Shown: positions 18,384 to 52,111, counted from the stretch's first letter. The stretch is DNA of 64,000 bases from a virus (IMGVR_UViG_3300014205_000002:128001-192000); one strand, 5' to 3'. Notes: generated from the sequence alone by a model not told the origin. Numbers and translations are program-made.

Positions 18384-18412
18384 ATTATCCGCGCGGGTCG
18401 GACCAAGGTCAA
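18384..18412 (-). promoter_or_regulatory. Sigma70 promoter of the HU gene (probably leaderless mRNA)
   Basis: TTGACC-17-GATAAT on the minus strand. Confidence 0.7.
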
Positions 18413-18458
18413 GAACCGCTCGAAGTGAGACGGTGACTCGACCCTGCGGACTGACTGA

Positions 18459-18501
18459 ACTCTGATTACATGTTGCATTTGTAATCAGAGTGCGGTAATG
18501 T
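18459..18501 (+). promoter_or_regulatory. Promoter TTGCAT-17-TAATGT overlapped by a 12-bp-arm inverted repeat (operator)
   Basis: ACTCTGATTACA-N9-TGTAATCAGAGT at 18459-18491. Confidence 0.6.
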
Positions 18502-18546
18502 GCAAGAGTACATATAACGACGTGGTCGGCAAAAAAGGAGTGAACC

Positions 18547-18903
18547 ATGAGTCAAGCGGCAGCGCCCAAGATCGTCTGCATCTACGACTGCCAGGTGGTG
18601 AAGAACGGTCGGTCCTTGTCGGTGACGCTCCGGAACCATGTCTCAAAGGCCATGGGGCTAAAGCCTGGTGACCCCGTGCGAATCGCGGTCCGCGATGACG
18701 GGGTGCATGTGCTGGTCTTCATGGAGACAGAGATGACCAGCAACGGCGGCTCGACGACCATGCCGCGGCCGATTCATCTGGCGATGGAGGATCCGACCAA
18801 GCCGCTCCTGGTCATTCCCGAAGGCCGGCGCGTGCGGGCGAAGACGTCCTTCATTCGTAGCCTGAACGCGCGCGATCAGCGCCAGTTCAAGTTCGCCCAG
18901 TAG
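18547..18903 (+). CDS. AbrB/MazE-like DNA-binding protein
   Basis: KNGRSLSVTL...AMGLKPGDPV swapped-hairpin motif; SD AAGGAG. Confidence 0.75.
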   Translation: MSQAAAPKIVCIYDCQVVKNGRSLSVTLRNHVSKAMGLKPGDPVRIAVRDDGVHVLVFMETEMTSNGGSTTMPRPIHLAMEDPTKPLLVIPEGRRVRAKTSFIRSLNARDQRQFKFAQ

Positions 18904-27542: not shown

Positions 27543-29033
27543 CTATTTGATCTCCTTGATGCGCTTCATAGCATCGGCATCGTCGATCGGACACACGCGC
27601 ATCCGCTCGACGAGACGGGGCCACCGCTCGCCCACGGCCTGGGCCATAAGCGTGGCGGCGATGCGGTAGTTCAGATGCCCGCCGGGCTTCGTCCGCAACT
27701 CCACGAGGCTGTAGAGCTCACGGAGGTTGCAGGCGAGGATGGCGCGCTTGTTGTAGCACATGGGCACGCAGTACTGCGCCACGAGCCGGCCGCACTGGGC
27801 CTCGATGTTCTCATAGAGCGCCTGGACCCCGAGCATGGCGTTCGCCCAGCGCTCGGTCAGATCGTAGCGGCCAGCGGCTTCCGGTAGATGGAAGCCGAGG
27901 TAGGGGTCGAGCGGCTGCTCGACGTGTAGGCACATGCGGTGACGCTGGAGGTCTCGCCAGGTACCGAAGTCCAGCGTGAGGTCGAAGGTGTGGGGGTAGA
28001 GTTCCAGCGCACGCGGTGCGCCGTCGCGCTCGCCACGGCTCTCAAAGATGGCGTTCCAGATCGCCGAGAATTGCGTCTCATTCAGGCGGGCAATTGCGAA
28101 CAGGAGGCGATTGTGGTCGACATTGACGTAGGGGTAGAGCGCCTGAGCGACGATGCGCTGCTCCGGCGGCCAGGCCCCGAGCAGCTCGACAGCAGGGCTG
28201 TCGGCGTGCTGGACCTGGCGTTCAAACGCGATCACGGAGGCGGCGATCGCAGCCATGGTCTCGCGGTAGGCCACCGGGTAGGTCTTGGGTGCGACGTACT
28301 TCACTAGCGTCGGCAGCTGTGACTGAAAAGTGGTCTTGAGACCCAAGCCGAGCGCGCGGGCCTCAGCAAGGTCGTGGCTGAGCAGCTTACTCACGCTGTG
28401 CTCGACGGTGCGCGCGTTGGCGACGTAGCCGACCATCGTCGTCGCCGAGGCCGGCAAGATGCCGCGAGCGACATCGAGGGCCTTGGCGCGCAGGTTCGCC
28501 GCATAGAGTGCCTCGCTCATGTCGGGCGATCGCGTAGCTTCGCCAGCGAAGGCCGCCATCAGGTCGTCCAGGGTCTCCTGGTAGAGCGCAAACAGGCCCA
28601 TGCAGTGGTCAATGTAGGCCTCGCGCAGGCCATGGAGCGTGTCGTCCAGTTCGTCTGGCACGATGAAGCTCGTGGGCCCCCAGGGCTGGTAGCGGGTCGA
28701 GGCCTCAACGTAGGAGCCGAGCCGGCCGTCTTCAAGCGCCTTGGCACAGAGCATGGAAATGTTCTCGACGCAGGCGTGACCGGTCGCCAGCTCCGCGACC
28801 GAGGCGTGCCCGTACCCCAGCACGTACTTGTCGTGGAAGGTCGAGGCCTTCTCCTTGGTTAGCAGGCCCGCGTTCTGGCGGAAGGGCAGCGGCGATCGCG
28901 AGGTCTTGGCGAGCGCGACCGCGACCTCCTCGGGTGTGAGCAGGGTGTCGCGCCCAGGAACCTCATGGAAGAGGTGATAGGCTTCCTGGGGCTTACGGGC
29001 GACCCGGTAGGCTTCATAGAGGGTCTTGGACAA
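27543..29033 (-). CDS. thyX: FAD-dependent thymidylate synthase (tandem two-domain ThyX type)
   Basis: YGHASVAE, EASTRY, RDLQRHR, ELRTKPGGH. Confidence 0.88.
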   Translation of the reverse strand: MSKTLYEAYRVARKPQEAYHLFHEVPGRDTLLTPEEVAVALAKTSRSPLPFRQNAGLLTKEKASTFHDKYVLGYGHASVAELATGHACVENISMLCAKALEDGRLGSYVEASTRYQPWGPTSFIVPDELDDTLHGLREAYIDHCMGLFALYQETLDDLMAAFAGEATRSPDMSEALYAANLRAKALDVARGILPASATTMVGYVANARTVEHSVSKLLSHDLAEARALGLGLKTTFQSQLPTLVKYVAPKTYPVAYRETMAAIAASVIAFERQVQHADSPAVELLGAWPPEQRIVAQALYPYVNVDHNRLLFAIARLNETQFSAIWNAIFESRGERDGAPRALELYPHTFDLTLDFGTWRDLQRHRMCLHVEQPLDPYLGFHLPEAAGRYDLTERWANAMLGVQALYENIEAQCGRLVAQYCVPMCYNKRAILACNLRELYSLVELRTKPGGHLNYRIAATLMAQAVGERWPRLVERMRVCPIDDADAMKRIKEIK

Positions 29034-34487: not shown

Positions 34488-35123
34488 TCAGCGCACGCCA
34501 GAGGTGCCCCAGCCACCCACCCGGTTGGACGGCGGCAGTGCGTCGACGGGCGTCCAGTCGCCCTCGACGTAGGCCTCGACACAGATCTGGGCGATGCGAT
34601 CACCGCCGGTGACCCGGAACGGCCTGTCGGAGTGGTTGTAGAGCACCACGCCGATCTGCTCGCGGTAGTTGTTGTCGATCAATCCCGCACCGACCTCGAT
34701 GCCCTCGTTTGAGGAGAGGCCCGAGCGACTCTCGACCACGATCTTGTAGCCGGGTGGCAGCGCGACCTTGATGCCGATGCCGAAAGTCTTGCGGCCGCCT
34801 GCGGGAATGACGATACTGTCGGCGTTGCCCATGCGCAGAAACTCATAGCCGTCGTCGCCATTGCGGTACTTGAGGCTGTAGGCGAAGACGTCCGAGGCCA
34901 CGTCGCCCGGCTGCATGGTCTTGGGCGCAGTGGCCCCTTTCATGACCACCGTGGGAATGCTCAGCTTGGGGGCGAGGCCCGCGAGTGCGACGATGGCGCG
35001 AGCCAGCTCCGGCGTGATGGCGATCGCGTCGGTGTTCAGGCTGCTGGAACCAGCCATGACCGGCAGGCGCTGGAGCGGCAACACGAGCTCGCCCTGGGCG
35101 TTGGTGTAGTGACTAGCGGGCAT
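34488..35123 (-). CDS. dut: Trimeric dUTPase with N-terminal extension
   Basis: SRSGL, GLIDNNYRE, GDRIAQ, RVGGWGTSG. Confidence 0.93.
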   Translation of the reverse strand: MPASHYTNAQGELVLPLQRLPVMAGSSSLNTDAIAITPELARAIVALAGLAPKLSIPTVVMKGATAPKTMQPGDVASDVFAYSLKYRNGDDGYEFLRMGNADSIVIPAGGRKTFGIGIKVALPPGYKIVVESRSGLSSNEGIEVGAGLIDNNYREQIGVVLYNHSDRPFRVTGGDRIAQICVEAYVEGDWTPVDALPPSNRVGGWGTSGVR

Positions 35124-36996
35124 GGGGCAGCTCCTTGGTTACAGCGAGTCCTGCGCGCTTGACGAAGGGAAGGAACTCGGGGACGGGGTGGAGGATGCGC
35201 TCGCCGAGCGCGATCCTGATCTGGTTACCCAGATGCCAGCCGAATAGCGGGGGTACCGCATTGCCGACCTGCCTGTATTGGGCCGAGCGGGGGCCCTGGA
35301 AGACCCAGTCGTCGGGGAAACTCTGGAGCCTCGCGGCTTCGCGCACGGTCAGCCGGCGCAGCCTGCGTGGCGGCGGAGCTGGTACGATGTGGGTGTGGTT
35401 GGCCCCGCCCGAGGCGACGATCGTCTGCGCGGGCTGGTCCATGTCCTGGACGCGACCACGGCCGTTGAAGATGGTCTCGGCGGGGTTTCCGGGCCGGGCC
35501 ATCAACTCCTTCGCGCGCTCCGAAGCGGGCACGATGGCGATCGCGTTGTCCTCGTGGTTGGGCACGGGCAGCAGGTTGGCATTGCCGCAGTCCTGCTCGG
35601 CGATGATGGTCTTCGCTGGTGCGTCCCAGCTCATGGCCGGATTACTCAGCTTACCCGCGAGGGCGCTGGGCCTAGGCGGCGAGGCCGGCTCGTGGTTGGG
35701 GACGTCACCCATGATGAAGTCGACGTTACCCGAGGTGTTGATCGTGCGGCCTGGCGCATCGGGATCGAGCAGCTTCATGCCCTGACCGACGTGCCCTGCG
35801 AGGATGGCCTCTTCATGCGTGCCCGTGTAGACGCTGGCCTCGTGGTTGGCGGGGATGGCCTGCTGGTGGTGGGCTCGTACGGTGTTGGCAGGCTTGTCCC
35901 AGGCGTGCAGGCCGTTGGGGCCGGCCCCGCGATCGGCGGCGTGCTCGATGTGCCTGATCTCACCGGGCGTGAGCGGGTGATTCACGTGGTTCTCGACCGG
36001 TAGCAGGTTCACGTTCCCCGAGCGCTGGTGGGCGATGATGCACGACGCGGGCTCGTCGAGCGCCATCGGAGCCTTCATCGACCAGTCGCTCTCGCCGGTG
36101 AGCGCGGAGGGTACCGGCGGGGGCGCGGCCTCATGGTTCTCGACGGGGATCAGGTTGTTGGTGCCGGACTCCTGCTTGGCGATGATCGTACGCGCGACCT
36201 GGTCGAGTTCCATCGGTGGGTGTTTCTGAGCCCAGGAGCTGTCGGCGATCGCCGCACATGGTGGCGGCGGAGGAGCTGGCTCATGGTTGGCGGCGGGGGC
36301 GAACGCGGGACCGTAAGGGGCCGGCAGATCGCTGATGGCCTGACGGACCGTGACCCATCTGCGCAGCGTACCGAAGAAGCCCGGAGTGGGAGTGTCCGCA
36401 TGCGTCGGCTTCGGCCAGGGGAAGAAGCTCTCGTCGCGTCGGCCGAAGAAGATCACGCGGATGCGCTTCTGGGGAACGCCGTAGTCGGCCATGTTGATCA
36501 TGCGGTACTCGACGCTGTAGCCGATGTCCCTGAAAGCCTGGAGGATCACGTCCTTGACCAGAGTCTGGTCGTCGTCGGTCTTCATCGTGAGTAGCCCCTT
36601 GACGTTCTCCATGACGAAACCCCACGGCTTGGCCTCGTCGACGACCCGTACAAACTGCCAGAACAGCTTGTTGCGCGGATCGTCCGCCTCGCGCTTGCCA
36701 GCGGTAGAGAACCCCTGGCAAGGTGGCCCGCCCACCACGAGGCGGGCCTGACCGGAAACCAGTCCTGCCGCCTCAAGGATGACCTCGGTGGGAATGGCGC
36801 AGATATCGCCCTTGAGCACGGGGATCCCCTGGCGGTTGTGGCGCAGCGTGTCGACGGCGTGCCCGTCGAGTTCGACCGCAACGCGCACGTCGAACCCCGC
36901 GGACTCCAGCCCGATATCCAGGCCCCCGGCCCCCGAGAACAGTGAGATGATCGGCATCGGCCGGTTGGTCGGACCGTGCATGGGGACGATGGTCAC
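35113..36996 (-). CDS. DNA (cytosine-5) methyltransferase with six tandem TRD-like modules
   Basis: SLFSGAGG, GGPPCQGFS, ENVKG, QKRIR, TVREAARLQSFP, QVGNAVPP. Confidence 0.95.
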   Translation of the reverse strand: MTIVPMHGPTNRPMPIISLFSGAGGLDIGLESAGFDVRVAVELDGHAVDTLRHNRQGIPVLKGDICAIPTEVILEAAGLVSGQARLVVGGPPCQGFSTAGKREADDPRNKLFWQFVRVVDEAKPWGFVMENVKGLLTMKTDDDQTLVKDVILQAFRDIGYSVEYRMINMADYGVPQKRIRVIFFGRRDESFFPWPKPTHADTPTPGFFGTLRRWVTVRQAISDLPAPYGPAFAPAANHEPAPPPPPCAAIADSSWAQKHPPMELDQVARTIIAKQESGTNNLIPVENHEAAPPPVPSALTGESDWSMKAPMALDEPASCIIAHQRSGNVNLLPVENHVNHPLTPGEIRHIEHAADRGAGPNGLHAWDKPANTVRAHHQQAIPANHEASVYTGTHEEAILAGHVGQGMKLLDPDAPGRTINTSGNVDFIMGDVPNHEPASPPRPSALAGKLSNPAMSWDAPAKTIIAEQDCGNANLLPVPNHEDNAIAIVPASERAKELMARPGNPAETIFNGRGRVQDMDQPAQTIVASGGANHTHIVPAPPPRRLRRLTVREAARLQSFPDDWVFQGPRSAQYRQVGNAVPPLFGWHLGNQIRIALGERILHPVPEFLPFVKRAGLAVTKELPHAR

Positions 36997-38771: not shown

Positions 38772-41285
38772 TTACTTGCAGCGCGAGTAGCCGCAGGTCG
38801 GGTTGATGCACTTGGCACAGCCCTCGCCGTGGTCGAGACGGCTGCCGCAGTCGGGGCATTCGGGGGTTTCGCCCTGATCGAGGGCGTGCAGGTTGGCGGC
38901 GTGCTGGGCGTTCGGTGCTGGCGGCAGCGGAAGCGGCAGCGCGAGGCCCAGGGCGAAGGTCACGGCCTCGCGGGGCGCGAGATCGATCGGACCACCGGAC
39001 CAGGTGAGCGGCGCACGCCGGATCGCCTTGCCGATCGCATCTGGCACCGAGAGCACCTGGTTGTCGCCGAACCCCGAGGGGTCGGCCCCGCGGATGCCCA
39101 CCAGGGCATGCGAAATGTCCTCGACGGGCACGCGGTGCTGGAGTGCCAGGCTGATCAGCTTGCCGATGGCCTCGCCGAACGAGTTCAGTGTGCCGCCGGA
39201 GCGCCCGATGTTCGTCACGACCTCGCGCAAGCCCTCCTCGTCGTAGTTGAGGGTGGTGTAGAGCTTGCCCTCGCCGACCTGCTTGGTCATGGTGAAGCCC
39301 GTCAGGACCTCGGGCCTGATCCGTTTGCCCGCCCGCATCTCTGCCATCAGGCTATCGAGACGCGCCTGGAGTTCGGCGAGTTGGGGCGGCGGGGCGATCG
39401 CCGCGGGGGCGGTCACCTGGGTGAGCGAGAGCGGCTGTGCCTCGCGGGAGTTGTTGCGGTACACGGTGATGCCCTTGCAGCCCGTCTCGTAGGCCAGGTG
39501 GTAGGCTTCCTCGACGTCCGCCTCGGTCGCGCTCTCAGGGAAGTTGATCGTCTTGGAGATGGCCGAGTCGTTGAAGCGCTGGAAGGCGGCCTGGGTGTGA
39601 ACGTGCTGGGCCGGGCTGATGTCGTGGGTGGTGACGAAGATGCGCGCGAGGTTGAAGAGGATCTTCATCTCGCCCGTCGTGAAGAACAGGGCCCTATCAA
39701 AGGGGTTGTCCGCCACCAACTCGTTGAGCGAGCCGTGGTAGTGAGTGTCCAGCGCTTCGAAGACATAGGCGATGCGTGCGTCGTCGAAGCCCTTGGCCCG
39801 GAGCGCGTCTGCGAACACGCGATCGGCGTCGAACATGTGGGTATCGGCCTGGAAGCGCTTGAAGGCCAGCGCGAAGACGGGCTCGCAGCCGCCCGAGGTA
39901 TCGGCGATCATGGAGAGGGTGCCCGTGGGCGCGCAGGTCGTGGTGTTGGAGTTGCGCAGGCCGTGGATGTCGACTTCGTCGGCGAGCCAGTCGTAGCGGC
40001 AATCCTTGTGCTTGCCGGGGCGCGCGTGACGCTCCATCAGCATCTTGCGGAAGATGGCGTTGGACTCGGCTTCGTGGCCGATGCGCGCGGGGAAGACGCC
40101 ACGGGCCTTGCCTAACTCCAGGCTCTTGACCTTCGATTCGTAGTCGATGAAGCTCATGACCTCTTCGGCGAAGGCCAGGCCCTCGGGGCTACCGTAGGGG
40201 ATCTGGAGCTTGAACAGCGCCCGGGCGAAGCCCATTACGCCGAGGCCCGTCTTGCGGGTGGCGTTCGAGACCTCGGCGATCTCAGGGATCGGGTACTTGT
40301 TCGCGCTGATCACGTTGTCGAGCATGTGCGCCGAGGTGTGAACGACGCCGCGCAGACGCTCCCAGTCGAAGAATGTGCAGTCGGGGCCGCCCTGCGGCAT
40401 GTCCATGACGAACTGCTCCAGGTTGATCGAGCCGAGATTGCAGGATTCATAGGGGATTAGGGGCTGTTCGCCACAAGGATTGGTGGCCTCATACTTGCCC
40501 AACCAGGGCACGGGGCAATACTCGTTCATGCGGTCGATGAACACGATGCCCGGCTCACCCGTGGTCCAGGCGCGCTTGACGATCTCCTTGAAGACGGGCC
40601 GCGCGCGGATTCTGTCGGTATCCTGGCCTGTGCGCGGGTTGATCAGGTCGTAGTTGTTATCATGAACGACGGCGTCCATAAACCTGTCGGTGATCGCCAC
40701 GGAGATGTTGAAGTTCGTGAGTTTGGAGAGGTCTTCCTTGTGGCTGATGAAGCTCAGGATGTCCGGATGATTGACGCGGAGGATGCCCATGTTCGCGCCA
40801 CGGCGCATGCCGCCCTGCTTGATGCTCTCGGTGGCCGCGTTGAACACGTCCATGAACGAGATCGGACCCGAGCTCTCGCCCTTGGTGGACTGGACCATAT
40901 CCTTGGCCGGCCGCAGGCGCGAGAAGGCGAAGCCGGTGCCGCCGCCGGTCTGGTGGATCAGGGCGGCGTTCTTGATGGTTTCAAAGATGCCCGCGAGGTC
41001 GTCGGGTACAGGCAGGACGAAGCAGGCCGAGAGCTGGCCCGTGCGGGTGCCGGCGTTCGCCAGCGTGGGTGAGTTCGGCAGGAAGTCGCCGTCCCAGAGG
41101 AGTTGGAAGAACGCCTCCTCGACGAGCGCCGTCTGCTCGGGCGTCTGGCCATGTTGCAGTTCGACGGCTGCCAGTGTGCGCGCGACGCGCCGCATCATCT
41201 CGATGGGCAGTTCGATCAGGTTGCCTTGGGCATCCTTTTCAAGGTAGCGCTTCTCCAGTACGGTGATGCCGTTCTTGCTCAGCAT
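38772..41285 (-). CDS. nrdJ: Class II (adenosylcobalamin-dependent) ribonucleotide reductase
   Basis: PNSPTL, QLSACFV, TNPCGEQPL, CNLGSINL, APTGT; C-terminal extra domain and Cys tail; no beta subunit nearby. Confidence 0.92.
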   Translation of the reverse strand: MLSKNGITVLEKRYLEKDAQGNLIELPIEMMRRVARTLAAVELQHGQTPEQTALVEEAFFQLLWDGDFLPNSPTLANAGTRTGQLSACFVLPVPDDLAGIFETIKNAALIHQTGGGTGFAFSRLRPAKDMVQSTKGESSGPISFMDVFNAATESIKQGGMRRGANMGILRVNHPDILSFISHKEDLSKLTNFNISVAITDRFMDAVVHDNNYDLINPRTGQDTDRIRARPVFKEIVKRAWTTGEPGIVFIDRMNEYCPVPWLGKYEATNPCGEQPLIPYESCNLGSINLEQFVMDMPQGGPDCTFFDWERLRGVVHTSAHMLDNVISANKYPIPEIAEVSNATRKTGLGVMGFARALFKLQIPYGSPEGLAFAEEVMSFIDYESKVKSLELGKARGVFPARIGHEAESNAIFRKMLMERHARPGKHKDCRYDWLADEVDIHGLRNSNTTTCAPTGTLSMIADTSGGCEPVFALAFKRFQADTHMFDADRVFADALRAKGFDDARIAYVFEALDTHYHGSLNELVADNPFDRALFFTTGEMKILFNLARIFVTTHDISPAQHVHTQAAFQRFNDSAISKTINFPESATEADVEEAYHLAYETGCKGITVYRNNSREAQPLSLTQVTAPAAIAPPPQLAELQARLDSLMAEMRAGKRIRPEVLTGFTMTKQVGEGKLYTTLNYDEEGLREVVTNIGRSGGTLNSFGEAIGKLISLALQHRVPVEDISHALVGIRGADPSGFGDNQVLSVPDAIGKAIRRAPLTWSGGPIDLAPREAVTFALGLALPLPLPPAPNAQHAANLHALDQGETPECPDCGSRLDHGEGCAKCINPTCGYSRCK

Positions 41286-42247: not shown

Positions 42248-43398
42248 GCCGGCACCTGGGCGAAATGGGCCTCGATCGCGTCCGGTAGCATCAATGGGTC
42301 AAGCACACCCAGATACTGCATGATCAGCGCGGTGGACGAGCTGAGGGCGATCGCCTGCTCCAGCTGGCGTTGATTGACGAAGCCCTGGCTCCAGGCGACC
42401 ATGGCCCGGGCGCTGGCCTGCGGCCCGGTGTAGGGATTGGCCTCCTGGGTCAGGCCTGCCACGGCGGCCTCCGCACCCTGGCGGTGAGCCTGTTCAACGC
42501 CCACGACCTGCCGGAGATCCTCGCTGCTCGTGAACAGGCGCTCGCGCACCTTGGCGTAGAGCACCCGGTAGCGCGAGAGGCAGCGCATGATTCGCTCGAA
42601 GTTGGTGCCGGCCTGTTCAGTCTCGGGCTCTCCCCGCAGCGCGTCGGCGATCAGGGCGTCGCGATACGACAAGGCATCCTTCGCCATGCCGGCCTCGGAC
42701 ACGGCGGCGGCCTCGCGGCTGCGGGCGATTGCAAGTTCACCGGTACTCGCGAGGGCCTCAGCGCGCACCAGCTCCGTGCTGGCCTTGAGCGTCTCGATCG
42801 CCTTGGTTAGCTGTTCGCTCTCGGCCAGTAGCTCGCAGACGCGCTGCTCGGCAGACTCCGCGCGCTCCTCTTGGGTGCGGATCTGGTCGATATACTGCGC
42901 CTCAATGGGCGTGGCTCCGCCGGTGCCGTAGGCCAGGAAGTTGTCGAGGAAAGCGTTGTAGCCATCGCAGCTGCGGCCATTGAGTGCTTCTTCGACCATT
43001 TCCTGGCGGTCAAGTGGGAGGAGTGCTCCGTTGTAGAGGCCGTTGAGCAGGCATTCATAGTGGAGCTTGCGCAGCACGGGCTTGAGGATGGCGCTGCCCG
43101 ATAGCTCGGCGCGCAGGAGCTGGTTCTCCTTGGCGAGTTGGCCGTAGCTGAGTTCGTAGTTGCGTATCGTGTCGAGCGCGCCAGCGAGGTAGCGACCAGC
43201 CTCTTCGGAACCGGCCGCGAGCTGCTTAATCAGCGCCGTGAGGTCCTGGCGGGTGAGGTGTTTGAGGTTCTCTCCCTGGTTCGTGTGGCGCTGCACCAAC
43301 TCGGGGATGCCGGCGATCGCCGCCTGGACCACCATGAGCGGGCTGGTGAAGTGGCCGTTGGTCACAACGACGGGGATGTCGGGGGTAGATTCACTCAT
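42244..43398 (-). CDS. Coiled-coil hypothetical protein
   Basis: SD AAGGAG, ATGA overlaps. Confidence 0.7.
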   Translation of the reverse strand: MSESTPDIPVVVTNGHFTSPLMVVQAAIAGIPELVQRHTNQGENLKHLTRQDLTALIKQLAAGSEEAGRYLAGALDTIRNYELSYGQLAKENQLLRAELSGSAILKPVLRKLHYECLLNGLYNGALLPLDRQEMVEEALNGRSCDGYNAFLDNFLAYGTGGATPIEAQYIDQIRTQEERAESAEQRVCELLAESEQLTKAIETLKASTELVRAEALASTGELAIARSREAAAVSEAGMAKDALSYRDALIADALRGEPETEQAGTNFERIMRCLSRYRVLYAKVRERLFTSSEDLRQVVGVEQAHRQGAEAAVAGLTQEANPYTGPQASARAMVAWSQGFVNQRQLEQAIALSSSTALIMQYLGVLDPLMLPDAIEAHFAQVPA

Positions 43399-44261
43399 GA
43401 GGCTTGTAGCTCCTTGCGTTGCTTGCGCAGCATGGACTGGTAGGTGAGCACGGAACTGACGTCCGCAAAGCCCAGCTGCTGCTTGATGTCGTGGGGGTCC
43501 TGATTGGCTTCGAGGAGTTCGATGATGCGGCTCGCGCGCATCACCTGGGGGGTCAACTGGGGCGTCTGTGCGCCCGCGGCGTTGCGTACGATCAGCCAGA
43601 CGACATGCCGGCTGATCATGCCGCCCTTCATACCGTAGAACATGAGGTCCTTGCGCGAGGCCGACTTCGGGACGGCGCGCACCTGGGCGTAGGCTACATA
43701 GGCCTCTTGGGCGATCGCGTCCAGCACCAGGAGGTCGTCGCGCTCCGCACTGACGAACAGCAAGGAGCCGGACCGAAAGAGGCTCTCGCCGTCGCCGGCG
43801 GCGTTGAAGCGCATGGCCTGAATTTCACCGGGCCGTATGCCCAGCCGGAACAACTCCATGATGAAGCGCCGCGAGGTGCCGAGGTGGTAGCGCGCGCAGG
43901 CCTCGGTGATCGCATCAGGGGGGTAGAAGGCGCTGTCCTTGCCGTCTGGACTCGGCCACTCCACGTCATGCAGCAGCGCCGTGTCCAGTTGGCCCCGCTC
44001 GATGTGGTGGCGCAGGAAGCCGCGCAGGGCGGCCCCCTTGCGTGTGGCGGTGTTCGGCCTGGCCCGGCGGCGGGTGTGGGTCATGTAAGCCGCCAGAATC
44101 TGGCTGGAGAGGTCGCCGAGATCCCGTGCGTCCGGGCAGTGCTCTGCGAGGTACTGAGTGAAGTCGGCGAGGTCCCCGCTGTAGGCGCTCGTGGTCGCGA
44201 CCGCCTTGTTCTGCTCGATCAGCTCGTTGACGTAGGCCTGGGTGGACTGAACGATGTTCAC
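43395..44261 (-). CDS. XerC/D-like tyrosine recombinase, catalytically degenerate
   Basis: TTSAYSGDL, ALRGFLR, GIRPGEI, TPQVMRAS, LGFADVSSVLTY. Confidence 0.8.
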   Translation of the reverse strand: MNIVQSTQAYVNELIEQNKAVATTSAYSGDLADFTQYLAEHCPDARDLGDLSSQILAAYMTHTRRRARPNTATRKGAALRGFLRHHIERGQLDTALLHDVEWPSPDGKDSAFYPPDAITEACARYHLGTSRRFIMELFRLGIRPGEIQAMRFNAAGDGESLFRSGSLLFVSAERDDLLVLDAIAQEAYVAYAQVRAVPKSASRKDLMFYGMKGGMISRHVVWLIVRNAAGAQTPQLTPQVMRASRIIELLEANQDPHDIKQQLGFADVSSVLTYQSMLRKQRKELQAS

Positions 44262-44611
44262 AGCTTTTTTCCTCGCTCCTGGCCGATCTTGACGAGCACG
44301 TCGAAGCGGCGGCAAGCGTCCTCGAACATGGGCCCGACGACGGCGCATTCGGTGTCCTGCATGTACAGGTTTGCGATCATGGCCTTCTGGCCCGTGGTGA
44401 CGCCGTCACCGACCCAGAGCGCCCATTCCTGGTTGAAGTTGTCCTTGGTCATGGCCCTGAGCGCGTCCTCGGAGAACGACTCGATGTCGCGATCCTCTTC
44501 GGTCTCGATCGCCGCCGGGATGTCCCAGATGGGGAAGGGAACAAGAGAGCCCTTCTTCTCCTTCTTCTCCGCCGGCGCTTTCGGCTTACTGGCGACGGAT
44601 CGTCTTGCCAT
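44258..44611 (-). CDS. Hypothetical protein
   Basis: Coupled starts and stops. Confidence 0.65.
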   Translation of the reverse strand: MARRSVASKPKAPAEKKEKKGSLVPFPIWDIPAAIETEEDRDIESFSEDALRAMTKDNFNQEWALWVGDGVTTGQKAMIANLYMQDTECAVVGPMFEDACRRFDVLVKIGQERGKKL

Positions 44612-44873: not shown

Positions 44874-45098
44874 CTAGCGGCTACCCAGGACCCGCAGGAC
44901 TCGACGCTCGGTTTGGCGATCCAGCGTTCCCGCAAAGAGCCGCCGCATCTCGTCTTCCATTCGCGCCGCTGTGGATTGTTGGTCCGACCAACGGGGGGAT
45001 TCAAGTATCCCATCTACGGGGGAGAAAGGCAACGTTACGTCTACCGAAACATTGGTCGGACCATCGTCAGAGCCGACGAAAAACGCATCACCTTTCAC
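44874..45098 (-). CDS. Small hypothetical protein
   Basis: SD GGAGG, GTGA overlap. Confidence 0.5.
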   Translation of the reverse strand: MKGDAFFVGSDDGPTNVSVDVTLPFSPVDGILESPRWSDQQSTAARMEDEMRRLFAGTLDRQTERRVLRVLGSR

Positions 45099-45373
45099 TG
45101 AAACTCCTCCGTAAGATCGGGCTGGTCAAAGCTCTCGGCGGGGCGATCGCTGGGGGTGTCCGCGAGTATGACGTAGAGCGGGTCCTGGGCCCAGTTGTTT
45201 ATCTCGGCTTCGGTGAAGTCATTGAGGACATCAGGCCTGTGTCCGGTAGTGAAGAGGATCGTAGCGGGCTCGACCTTGATCACTGGTGGGTTGACCACCG
45301 CCATCTCCGCAGGATTGAGGACGGTCTTGTTCGGGCCCTGCCTGCCCATGAGTTGGCGCATGAAGTCAGTCAT
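45095..45373 (-). CDS. Small protein with C-terminal SDRPAESFDQPDLTEEF motif
   Basis: Translation. Confidence 0.6.
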   Translation of the reverse strand: MTDFMRQLMGRQGPNKTVLNPAEMAVVNPPVIKVEPATILFTTGHRPDVLNDFTEAEINNWAQDPLYVILADTPSDRPAESFDQPDLTEEFQ

Positions 45374-45587
45374 CGGCGAGATCCGGATAGGCGGCAACGA
45401 GATGGCGAACGTGCGGCCGCCGCGGCGGCTCGACCGCGGCCATGCGTACCGAGAGGTCTTGAACGGCCTCGACGACGTTTGTGCCGGCTGGGTAGTATCC
45501 GGTGCTGTCGTCGATCTGGAGCCTGTCGGGGTTCAAGGGGTTCTCCGTTACCCATACGGTCTCAGGGCGACCATTGTCCCCGAGCAT
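45366..45587 (-). CDS. Small hypothetical protein
   Basis: TAATG coupling. Confidence 0.55.
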   Translation of the reverse strand: MLGDNGRPETVWVTENPLNPDRLQIDDSTGYYPAGTNVVEAVQDLSVRMAAVEPPRRPHVRHLVAAYPDLADD

Positions 45588-45763
45588 TACAGGAACGTCT
45601 CGGTCATGTCGGGGGCGGCGAAGCTGTCGGCGGGGCGATCGCTGGGCCCAGGTCCAACCACGAAGCGCTGGGAGATGCGGGTGACGGGCATGTCGAGATG
45701 CATATTGATGGTGACCTTCTCGACCTGGTCGTCCTGGGCGTCGGTCCAGCTGAATTCAGCCAC
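45587..45763 (-). CDS. 58-aa protein with C-terminal SDRPADSFAAPDMTETF motif (not in ORF track)
   Basis: SD GAGGAG plus GTG start; translated by hand. Confidence 0.6.
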   Translation of the reverse strand: MAEFSWTDAQDDQVEKVTINMHLDMPVTRISQRFVVGPGPSDRPADSFAAPDMTETFL

Positions 45764-45920
45764 AAGTCATCTCCTCGGTCAGGTCGGGGGTGGTGAAGCT
45801 CGCGGGCGGGCGCGGGCTTTTGGGAGGGAACAGCCGGTCCATCCCTTGCAGGTCATTCATCAAGTCTTCCGCGGCCTTGATCTGAGCGGACGTGACGGGG
45901 CGTTCGCGATTCGGGGTCAT
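45756..45920 (-). CDS. 54-aa protein with C-terminal SPRPPASFTTPDLTEEM motif
   Basis: SD AAGGAG, TGATG coupling. Confidence 0.6.
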   Translation of the reverse strand: MTPNRERPVTSAQIKAAEDLMNDLQGMDRLFPPKSPRPPASFTTPDLTEEMTCG

Positions 45921-46462
45921 CAACGGGGCGCTCCTTGAGGCTGAGGGGCTTCTGAATCCGCGAAAGCTTGCGCCATGACCAGGCACCAGGGTACCTCCTG
46001 CATGTGGTCGGTGGCGGCCTTGATCAGCGCGGCACCGACGGCATGGTTCATGGCGTAGGGGCTGAACCCATTGATGACGGCACGCTTGCCGGCCAGGGTG
46101 AGCTTGGCATGACAGGTCGGCCCGCTCTGTGCGGTGTGGATGTCGGCGACCAGCTCCGCCATGCCCGCCTCGCGCACGACGTCCCAGAAGCCTTCGGAAC
46201 AGGCTGCGTCGTACTCGATGGCCGGCATCTGGGCCTTGCACCACTTGGCGATCGCGTCGACCCGTACATCATAGACGACTGACCAGCCTTCTGGCCGCTT
46301 GATCTCGTTGATGACGCGCCCATGCAGACCTTTCATCACCTCGGCGTGCATCAGGTCGCGGGCCCGCACCCGCTTCGAGCGGCCCGTCGCGACGAGCTGC
46401 ACGTAGCCGTGGGCCTTCACGCTCGCGACCACCGCCATCCGGAGGAGATCGGCGGGCGTCAT
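45920..46462 (-). CDS. Hypothetical protein
   Basis: ATGA overlap. Confidence 0.65.
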   Translation of the reverse strand: MTPADLLRMAVVASVKAHGYVQLVATGRSKRVRARDLMHAEVMKGLHGRVINEIKRPEGWSVVYDVRVDAIAKWCKAQMPAIEYDAACSEGFWDVVREAGMAELVADIHTAQSGPTCHAKLTLAGKRAVINGFSPYAMNHAVGAALIKAATDHMQEVPWCLVMAQAFADSEAPQPQGAPR

Positions 46463-46857
46463 ATCACCATCACCGTGAGGCCTGCCCAGGCGGGCGGGGG
46501 CTCGGCGCGGAAGCTCTCGGTCAGGTCGGGCACACTCTGGGCGATCGCCTGCGTGATCGACGCACCCTTGGCGGCCGGTTGGCCGATCTTCGCGCCCTGG
46601 GCGAGCAGCGTCTCGCCCGTCATCGGCGGCGTCGTGAAGGACACGGCATGGCCGAGATCCTTCCAGTCCACGTCCTTGCGCAGGATCAGGCCATTGGCGA
46701 AGACCATCAGGGGGGTGAACTCAGGCGGGAGCGCGAATACGGACGTCTTGTCGTCACCCTCGCCGAGCGGAACCGGGCCGAACTGATCCAGCTTCAAGCG
46801 ATTCAGTGGGATTGAGTCTTCGGCGATGCGCGTCCCCAGCACCATGGGCGTGATCAT
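46459..46857 (-). CDS. Stand-alone tail/baseplate-type beta-sandwich domain protein
   Basis: GEGDDKTSVFAL...VFANG...DW...VSFTTPP..GETL pattern. Confidence 0.5.
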   Translation of the reverse strand: MITPMVLGTRIAEDSIPLNRLKLDQFGPVPLGEGDDKTSVFALPPEFTPLMVFANGLILRKDVDWKDLGHAVSFTTPPMTGETLLAQGAKIGQPAAKGASITQAIAQSVPDLTESFRAEPPPAWAGLTVMVI

Positions 46858-49234: not shown

Positions 49235-49486
49235 TTAATTGGTCAGCTTCTCGACACAGGCGATGACGTCGTCGACGCTGTTGATCTTCTCGGCTTCATC
49301 ATCGGACATCTCAATGTCGAATTCGTCTTCGATCGCCATCACCAGTTCCACTTGATCCAATGAGTCCGCCCCGAGATCTTCGTCGAACTTGGCCTCGCGG
49401 GTCACGACGTCCTCATGGACACCGAGTCGCTCTGTGACAATAAACCGGATGCGGTTGAAGGTGGCGGTCTGGTTGATGGCGTCCAT
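49235..49486 (-). CDS. acpP: Acyl carrier protein
   Basis: [23 protein letters not shown] phosphopantetheine-site motif. Confidence 0.95.
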
Positions 49487-51610: not shown

Positions 51611-52111
51611 TCAGGCCATCACCATGCGGGCCGAGGTGTACTTCTTATAGAGCGGGTGGTTGGGCTGGCCGGTCTTGGAGAGCCCATCAAGCGAGTGCAG
51701 GAGGTGCTCGCTCAGGAGTTTGCGCACGGCCTTGTCACGATTGAGGAGCTTGCCGTGGTTGCCCCAGGCAGCGATCAGGAGCTGACTGTCGTTGGCGGCC
51801 TTGAGGATGGCGGCGTTGTTGCGGGGGCCAACGCAGTCGATCTCGTAGGCATTGTCTTTGAGGACGGCGGGGCTTGTCTCGCGGTAGGCGAAGAGGTTCG
51901 CGACGGTGATGCCGCCGTAGCCCCATTTGTCCGCGAAACCCATGCACTTGCGAATGGTGGCGTCGTCGACCTCGGCGTCAGCGGTCGATGGGTTGAGCAT
52001 AATGAAGCCGACGAGACCGGCTTCCGGCTTCCAGATACGAGTCAGGGCGTAGCGATACAACCCAGACTCGCAGAGGTCGGCGGTCTTTGTGATGACGGTG
52101 TCCTTTTCCAA
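51611..52111 (-). CDS. DUF1643 family protein
   Basis: YRYALTRIW, IMLNPSTAD, NLFAYR, AAWG, GQPNHPLY. Confidence 0.85.
   Translation of the reverse strand: MEKDTVITKTADLCESGLYRYALTRIWKPEAGLVGFIMLNPSTADAEVDDATIRKCMGFADKWGYGGITVANLFAYRETSPAVLKDNAYEIDCVGPRNNAAILKAANDSQLLIAAWGNHGKLLNRDKAVRKLLSEHLLHSLDGLSKTGQPNHPLYKKYTSARMVMA

Follow-up and report, generated by a model that had tools for sequence, protein, structure and literature searches.

We analysed a 64,000-nucleotide stretch of viral DNA (hereafter the window), which comprises bases 128,001-192,000 of a complete 208,264-bp virus record in IMG/VR (IMGVR_UViG_3300014205_000002) with direct terminal repeats. In a long, tightly packed block of minus-strand genes, three adjacent mini-genes of this phage have predicted products that end in a common 17-residue peptide. 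A92, a 92-amino-acid (aa) orphan at 45095-45373, carries the full motif SDRPAESFDQPDLTEEF at 45101-45151, followed by Q and the stop codon; B58, a 58-aa orphan with a GTG start at 45587-45763, carries SDRPADSFAAPDMTETF at 45593-45643, followed by L and the stop codon; and C54, a 54-aa orphan at 45756-45920, carries SPRPPASFTTPDLTEEM at 45768-45818, followed by the residues TCG and the stop codon. The C-termini therefore read PDLTEEFQ, PDMTETFL and PDLTEEMTCG, respectively. In the motif, a proline-rich lead (S-x-R-P-x-x-S) precedes an acidic-hydrophobic core (F-x-x-P-D-[LMI]-T-E-[ET]-[FLM]). The minus-strand gene order is G234, D132, X180, C54, B58, E73, A92 and a doubtful 74-codon open reading frame (ORF), and the stop and start codons of the cluster overlap or abut (ATGA, TAATG, GTG...TGA).

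A six-frame scan of the whole genome with RP..SF..PD[LM]TE gave exactly three matches, all inside 700 bp. The patterns RP..SF..PD and SF..PD[LMIV][TSA][ED] also matched three times each, at 45107-45145, 45599-45637 and 45774-45812; these matches lie on the minus strand in the coding frame, with the stop codon 3-5 residues further on. A hidden Markov model (HMM) built from the three copies scored them at 45.6 bits (A92), 46.9 bits (B58) and 40.2 bits (C54), that is 40-47 bits, and scored the rest of the genome at 9 bits or less. The initial annotation had placed the three peptides at these positions, and the scan confirmed them on the minus strand.

The short pattern PD[LM]TE has a fourth match in the genome, at 46516-46530 in D132 (132 aa, 46459-46857). 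This protein bears two decayed in-frame copies: PDLTESF at 46510-46530, 16 residues before the stop codon, which had been noticed before, and an internal copy, SFTTPPMTGETLL at 46603-46641, which we add here. With 6.7 and 7.6 bits, respectively, they are among the best weak matches to the motif HMM. Intact copies lie 1-3 residues from the stop codon, and the copies that are now internal, those of D132, are decayed. E73 (73 aa, 45366-45587), in whose last codons the ATG of A92 lies, ends in YPDLADD, as also noted initially; this is possibly a decayed copy of PDLTEE, a weak match that the motif HMM missed. X180 (180 aa, 45920-46462), between D132 and C54, is without the motif. B58 was described as missing from the ORF track; yet public collections call B58, C54 and E73 as genes, as they do the motif carriers in general. 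The content of guanine and cytosine at third codon positions (GC3) is 0.76-0.86 in all motif carriers (A92, 0.77; B58, 0.85), which is typical for the genes of this phage. By comparison, the doubtful ORF at 44874-45098, whose GTG start lies 5 nt after the GAGGAG of A92, has a GC3 of 0.60 and is uncalled in public collections; it may be non-coding spacer. Additionally, residues ~38-50 of the nearby I117 (44258-44611), EDRDIESFSEDAL, loosely resemble SDRPAESFDQPDL (BLASTP E 0.29 in a 10-protein set), which may be a further decayed copy or chance.

Similarity between carriers is restricted to the motif. The bodies of the 54-, 58- and 92-aa proteins have no detectable mutual similarity by BLASTP or by profile comparison with hhalign, in agreement with the unrelated N-termini reported in the initial annotation. 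Moreover, when all cluster proteins were searched against the phage's entire genome with tblastn, no body matched part of any other phage protein, and the idea that the mini-proteins are decoy fragments of structural proteins found no sequence support in this search. Pfam and PHROGs searches on all cluster ORFs and 20 neighbours assigned the motif carriers to no family.

The only relative that we found was reached through X180. A92 has no homologue among 5.8 billion clusters, its sole match being A92 itself. X180, which matches no Pfam or PHROG family, has one homologue (190 aa, 44% identity) among 1.84 billion representatives, and none in IMG/VR by single sequence or alignment nor any blastn match in INPHARED. 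This homologue is located on a 1,484-bp ENA metagenome contig, L042. The gene just downstream of it encodes a 100-aa protein similar to the N-terminal region of D132 (BLASTP E 1e-4), and the best tblastn match of this protein in the phage genome is D132. It bears the core as RFDAPDITEELL, aligned to the internal D132 copy, and is without the lead, which is confined to A92, B58 and C54. A profile search with D132 and the L042 protein retrieved those two proteins only. Because the core is present in both D132 and its L042 homologue, it predates the split of the two phages. At L042:1301-1367, the D132 homologue and the following reading frame share 66 nt, and the overlapping GTG frame after the motif has a GC3 of 0.91 vs 0.67 by hand count; the overlap is either real, or the stop codon after the motif was lost, or an indel is present in this low-coverage contig (3.8x). 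These comparisons show a lineage-specific module, read as peptide in the coding frame in every copy, with a core kept across a deep split.

To judge chance, we used a degenerate DNA pattern for RP..SF..PD[LMIF]TE, which carries ~35 bits. It had no match in 2.9 million IMG/VR viral contigs, 24 matches in prokaryote genomes (596 Gb, 185,579 species genomes) and 16 matches in metagenome contigs (241 million records). The prokaryote and metagenome matches lie nearly all in stop-containing frames or scattered taxa, and none combines a terminal position with the final hydrophobic residue; the match counts are at chance level for collections of these sizes. A pattern of ~35 bits that occurs at chance level elsewhere, yet in three copies in 700 bp here, is therefore not due to chance, which is also ruled out by the score gap of the motif HMM. 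A profile of the motif searched against proteins of 78-2000 aa retrieved A92 and the L042 protein only.

A relaxed core pattern matched 11 loci of six sequence families in IMG/VR, about the chance estimate. In one of these families, found in unrelated viral contigs of 43-47% GC, a 161-aa helix-turn-helix-type protein (L043:4004-4489, also on L044, L046, L048, L050 and L051) terminates exactly in PDFDDPDITEEL and the stop codon (FDDPDITEEL-stop), matching the L042 core at 9/10 positions. Its GAGGAG serves the next gene, whose GTG or ATG follows at once, and we judged this occurrence to be a chance match aided by a ribosome-binding-site effect.

We next consider whether the motif is constrained as peptide or as nucleic acid. 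Codon usage was estimated from 77 long ORFs, and same-codon pairs were counted at residues identical between copies. In the 10-codon core, the same-codon counts were 2, 3, 4, 5, 4 and 4, against expected values of 3.6, 3.9, 4.2, 2.9, 3.2 and 3.6, in a test that is weak with four sequences. Since these counts are at the codon-usage expectation, the synonymous sites of the core are randomised. The synonymous differences listed in the initial annotation (GAT/GAC, CTT/CTG, ACG/ACC and TTT/TTC) are real. Moreover, two core hydrophobic positions read CTT/ATG/CTG/ATC and TTT/TTC/ATG/TTG, so that the L/M/I and F/M/L positions vary in the first and third codon bases, which is conservative for the peptide but not for the bases. 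The codon data favour a core that is probably constrained as peptide, rather than copied as DNA.

The 7-codon lead behaves differently. A92 and B58 use the same codon at 6/6 positions, vs 2.2 expected, and share 20 identical bases. The octamer GCGATCGC is central in this run and sets the S, D and R codons in A92 (45143-45150) and B58 (45635-45642). C54 and L042 are without the octamer, which leaves the core F..PD.TE uncovered. The shared codons and the octamer therefore make the lead of A92 and B58 partly a DNA-level feature or a recent copy. GCGATCGC is the HIP1 octamer, typical of cyanobacteria. It occurs 49 times in the window vs 5.5 expected (9-fold over) and 120 times in the 208-kb genome; within ORFs its commonest reading is A-I-A (68), with x-D-R (25) less frequent. 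Its abundance hints at a cyanobacterial host; the sole sequencing run containing this DNA is a landfill metagenome.

These data bear on the possibility that the element is a DNA-level repeat, namely a 58-nt cassette-boundary or recombination sequence, or the product of short-patch gene conversion aided by GCGATCGC, with the peptide incidental to the ORFs. A repeat search did recover a 58-nt direct repeat in three copies with 76% and 60% identity, and the run of identical bases and codons around the octamer in A92 and B58 fits such an origin. However, codon identity is random outside the 20-nt stretch, the octamer by itself accounts for the codons of S, D and R, the two copies without an octamer still have the core, and every copy is in the coding frame. 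The T4 PeSL cassette boundary is an intergenic repeat with a promoter and a stem-loop. In contrast, the repeat here lies within coding frames, with no promoter-like (sigma-70-like) site in or around the cluster and no terminator-like site on the coding strand of the cluster, all six being on the non-coding plus strand. Nor was a stable fold found: RNA structure predicted over the four motif regions was not significant (z -0.6 to +0.5). We therefore consider a DNA-level repeat very unlikely.

Nucleic-acid function is plainer at the very end of the motif. In C54, the EE codons form a GAGGAG that precedes B58's GTG start by 7 nt. Three junctions in all have a GAGGAG or GGAGGA, contributed by the TEE codons, at 5-7 nt from a following GTG: that between C54 and B58, that between A92 and the doubtful ORF, and that on L042, where the GTG is at 1301. 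Across the phage, EE occurs in the last seven residues of 10/241 confident ORFs, nearly always through a GAGGAG or GAGGAA used by the following start codon. EE is thus a by-product of ribosome-binding sites and requires no peptide explanation, whereas the other conserved residues do. In sum, the initial claim of peptide-level selection is supported by a core at codon-usage expectation, by conservative swaps and by the presence of the core in a relative with a 44%-identical neighbour gene, but it underrated two nucleic-acid contributions, the ribosome-binding site in EE and the octamer in S-D-R.

The same junctions raise the possibility that the motif is a gene-junction or nascent-peptide element. 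The last ~17 residues, while in the exit tunnel, would slow termination and, together with the TEE ribosome-binding site, set how frequently ribosomes re-initiate at the downstream cistron, whose start is often GTG; the mini-proteins would then maybe be by-products. A start codon follows the motif by 2-5 nt in 4/4 full copies (C54 to the B58 GTG, A92 to a GTG, B58 to the E73 ATG, and L042 to the GTG at 1301), the L042 frame that begins there is the one richer in GC3, and three of these starts are preceded by the GAGGAG or GGAGGA described above. The two decayed copies in D132 are those without an adjacent start codon. SecM carries an arrest motif of 17 residues, about equal in length to the motif here.

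Arrest peptides such as SecM, MifM, VemP and ApcA/ApdA/ApdP are conserved at the peptide level near the 3' end of small ORFs with unrelated N-termini, and those of the Apc/Apd type carry R-A-P-G/P at the stall site (Sakiyama et al. 2021, PMC7897499). Like them, the elements here show amino-acid conservation only towards the C-terminus, close to the 3' end of a small ORF that is immediately followed by another cistron. Unlike them, they occur in several copies in a row, and the downstream genes are unrelated orphans rather than one regulated target. To our knowledge, three or four arrest elements placed consecutively in one operon are without precedent. No known arrest signature was recognised: the motif copies contain no RAPG or RAPP, their R-P lies 13-14 residues upstream of the motif end instead of at the stall end, and an N-terminal export signal is absent. 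Moreover, the B58 copy has lost the ribosome-binding site (GAGACG instead, followed by TAATG) while its motif is otherwise kept, the ORF downstream of A92 is of doubtful status, and there is no mRNA structure for a stalled ribosome to open. A junction element is the main rival to the reading favoured below but rather unlikely. Its more specific form, in which the phage reuses the 17-residue peptide as a translational device at gene junctions, to pause the ribosome and hand it to a weak GTG start, and copies such a coupling module between junctions, is quite doubtful.

Alternatively, the carriers might be a plain family of diverged paralogues, old tandem duplicates of a D132-like gene, in which the tail is the slowest-evolving part of a small fold or oligomerisation element and not a separable tag. 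The copies are adjacent, and the motif is present in the D132 family, which has the L042 homologue. The restriction of the lead to A92, B58 and C54, to the exclusion of L042, suggests that these three share a more recent common descent. Elsewhere in the genome, at ~18,400-18,640 (~109 kb before the window), a pair of neighbouring micro-ORFs that are read in different frames share the tail TGG[IV]ISNNGAS. This pair suggests that gene ends are often duplicated locally in this phage and that such duplication is the likely origin of the motif copies, which speaks for a paralogue family as well. However, the body lengths differ (54, 58 and 92 aa), the bodies are dissimilar even by profile comparison, and the tail has many Pro, Asp, Glu and Ser residues and sits at the very end, unlike a fold core. 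We regard simple paralogy as likewise rather unlikely. Still, we saw no sign that the tail is portable or had been attached to cargo peptides, as had been proposed, and a diverged tandem-duplicate family fits equally well with what was seen in this respect.

The GC content of the window is 64%. Downstream of the cluster lie genes for a tyrosine-recombinase-like protein (43395-44348), a class II ribonucleotide reductase (38772-41285), a C5 methyltransferase (35113-36996) and ThyX (27543-29033); upstream, in the same minus-strand block, lie an acyl-carrier protein gene (49235-49486; PP-binding, E 8e-12) and a DUF1643 gene (51611-52111; E 2e-42). The nucleotide-metabolism genes of the phage thus reside in the same minus-strand block as the cluster. 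A neighbouring 766-aa protein has no close relative in IMG/VR. The landfill run, probably the origin of the DNA analysed here, is stored as contigs, and no variants of the region were seen there.

Taking the peptide-level constraint as the starting point, we tentatively favour the reading, at somewhat less than an even chance, that the tail is a lineage-specific, flexible, acidic-hydrophobic docking peptide. Three hydrophobic side chains in acidic surroundings would dock on a single partner, a phage or host protein, and the Pro, Ser, Asp and Glu at most other positions would fit a flexible acidic tail. The differing bodies would bring differing activities to the shared partner, or would compete for it. 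The copies would most likely have arisen by local duplication of gene 3' ends, and their last two codons would be under extra constraint as the ribosome-binding site of the next gene.

The closest parallel in kind is the sliding-clamp system of T4, in which gp43, gp33 and gp55 carry interchangeable hydrophobic-acidic C-terminal tails that dock on the gp45 clamp and are joined to the body by a divergent flexible linker; gp33 has 112 aa (Geiduschek and Kassavetis 2010, PMC2988020). The T4 tails are interchangeable because all of them dock on one partner. Like the motif here, they are short hydrophobic-acidic C-terminal peptides on otherwise unrelated phage proteins, a likeness in kind only. Unlike the T4 carriers, the proteins here are adjacent orphans with a tail that appears to differ in sequence, and neither a gp45-like nor a DnaN-like clamp was found in the phage. 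Because no clamp gene was found, we do not claim membership in the T4 clamp-tail system, and the parallel may be one of design only. The bacterial beta-clamp binding consensus is QL[SD]LF or QLxLxL, and no motif copy has the glutamine-leucine core. The C-terminal tip of SSB is an acidic run that ends in I/L-P-F-COOH; the motif copies have no Pro-Phe end, and 1-3 residues follow their aromatic residue.

A further possibility is that the motif imitates the peptide by which a host protein makes contacts and so titrates a host factor, a role that the initial annotation had offered among others. In its favour is only that acidic-hydrophobic tails of this sort, the SSB C-terminus among them, are plausible in general. 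However, the motif does not occur above chance in the 185,579 prokaryote species genomes; the pattern matches there and in the 241 million metagenome records are chance-like, mostly in non-coding frames and scattered taxa, the profile search returned the two known carriers only, and there is no match to QL[SD]LF or DDDIPF-COOH. We give a host mimic very little credence. Short peptides on diverse carriers are also known from cargo loading. The T4 capsid-targeting sequence is N-terminal and is cut off, and encapsulin cargo-loading peptides are C-terminal with a GSL-type consensus; in both systems the peptide is portable and directs cargo to one shell. The motif resembles them as a short peptide on diverse carriers, but the GSL-type consensus is absent and the cluster lies among nucleotide-metabolism genes, not head genes.

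Several observations weigh against a docking tail. Only four copies are informative, and the distribution of variable columns over the three codon positions (5/3/7 by hand count) is not by itself proof of peptide-level selection. The start codon that follows every full copy (A92, B58, C54 and L042) within 2-5 nt is what a junction function also predicts. In D132 and L042, the motif lies 16-22 residues from the stop codon, so a free C-terminus is not strictly required. No partner was found; in the complete 208-kb genome nothing matched PF02916 (gp45 N-terminal domain) or PF00712 (DnaN), although a very divergent sliding clamp is possible. Finally, structure prediction of the carriers and neighbours yielded nothing usable because homologues are too few: AlphaFold2 models of X180 and D132 had predicted local distance difference test (pLDDT) values of 53 and 30, respectively, Foldseek found no fold match in the PDB, and the ESM Atlas gave nothing usable for X180 and A92.

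The case is a small one, consisting of three copies and one relative in an uncultured phage. If the motif is a junction element, it would be a repeated, peptide-encoded translational coupling element, of which we know no description. If, as we tentatively favour, it is a docking peptide, the orphan proteins that carry it would become clients of one hub, and the 17-mer would provide a bait for that hub in poorly known large phages.

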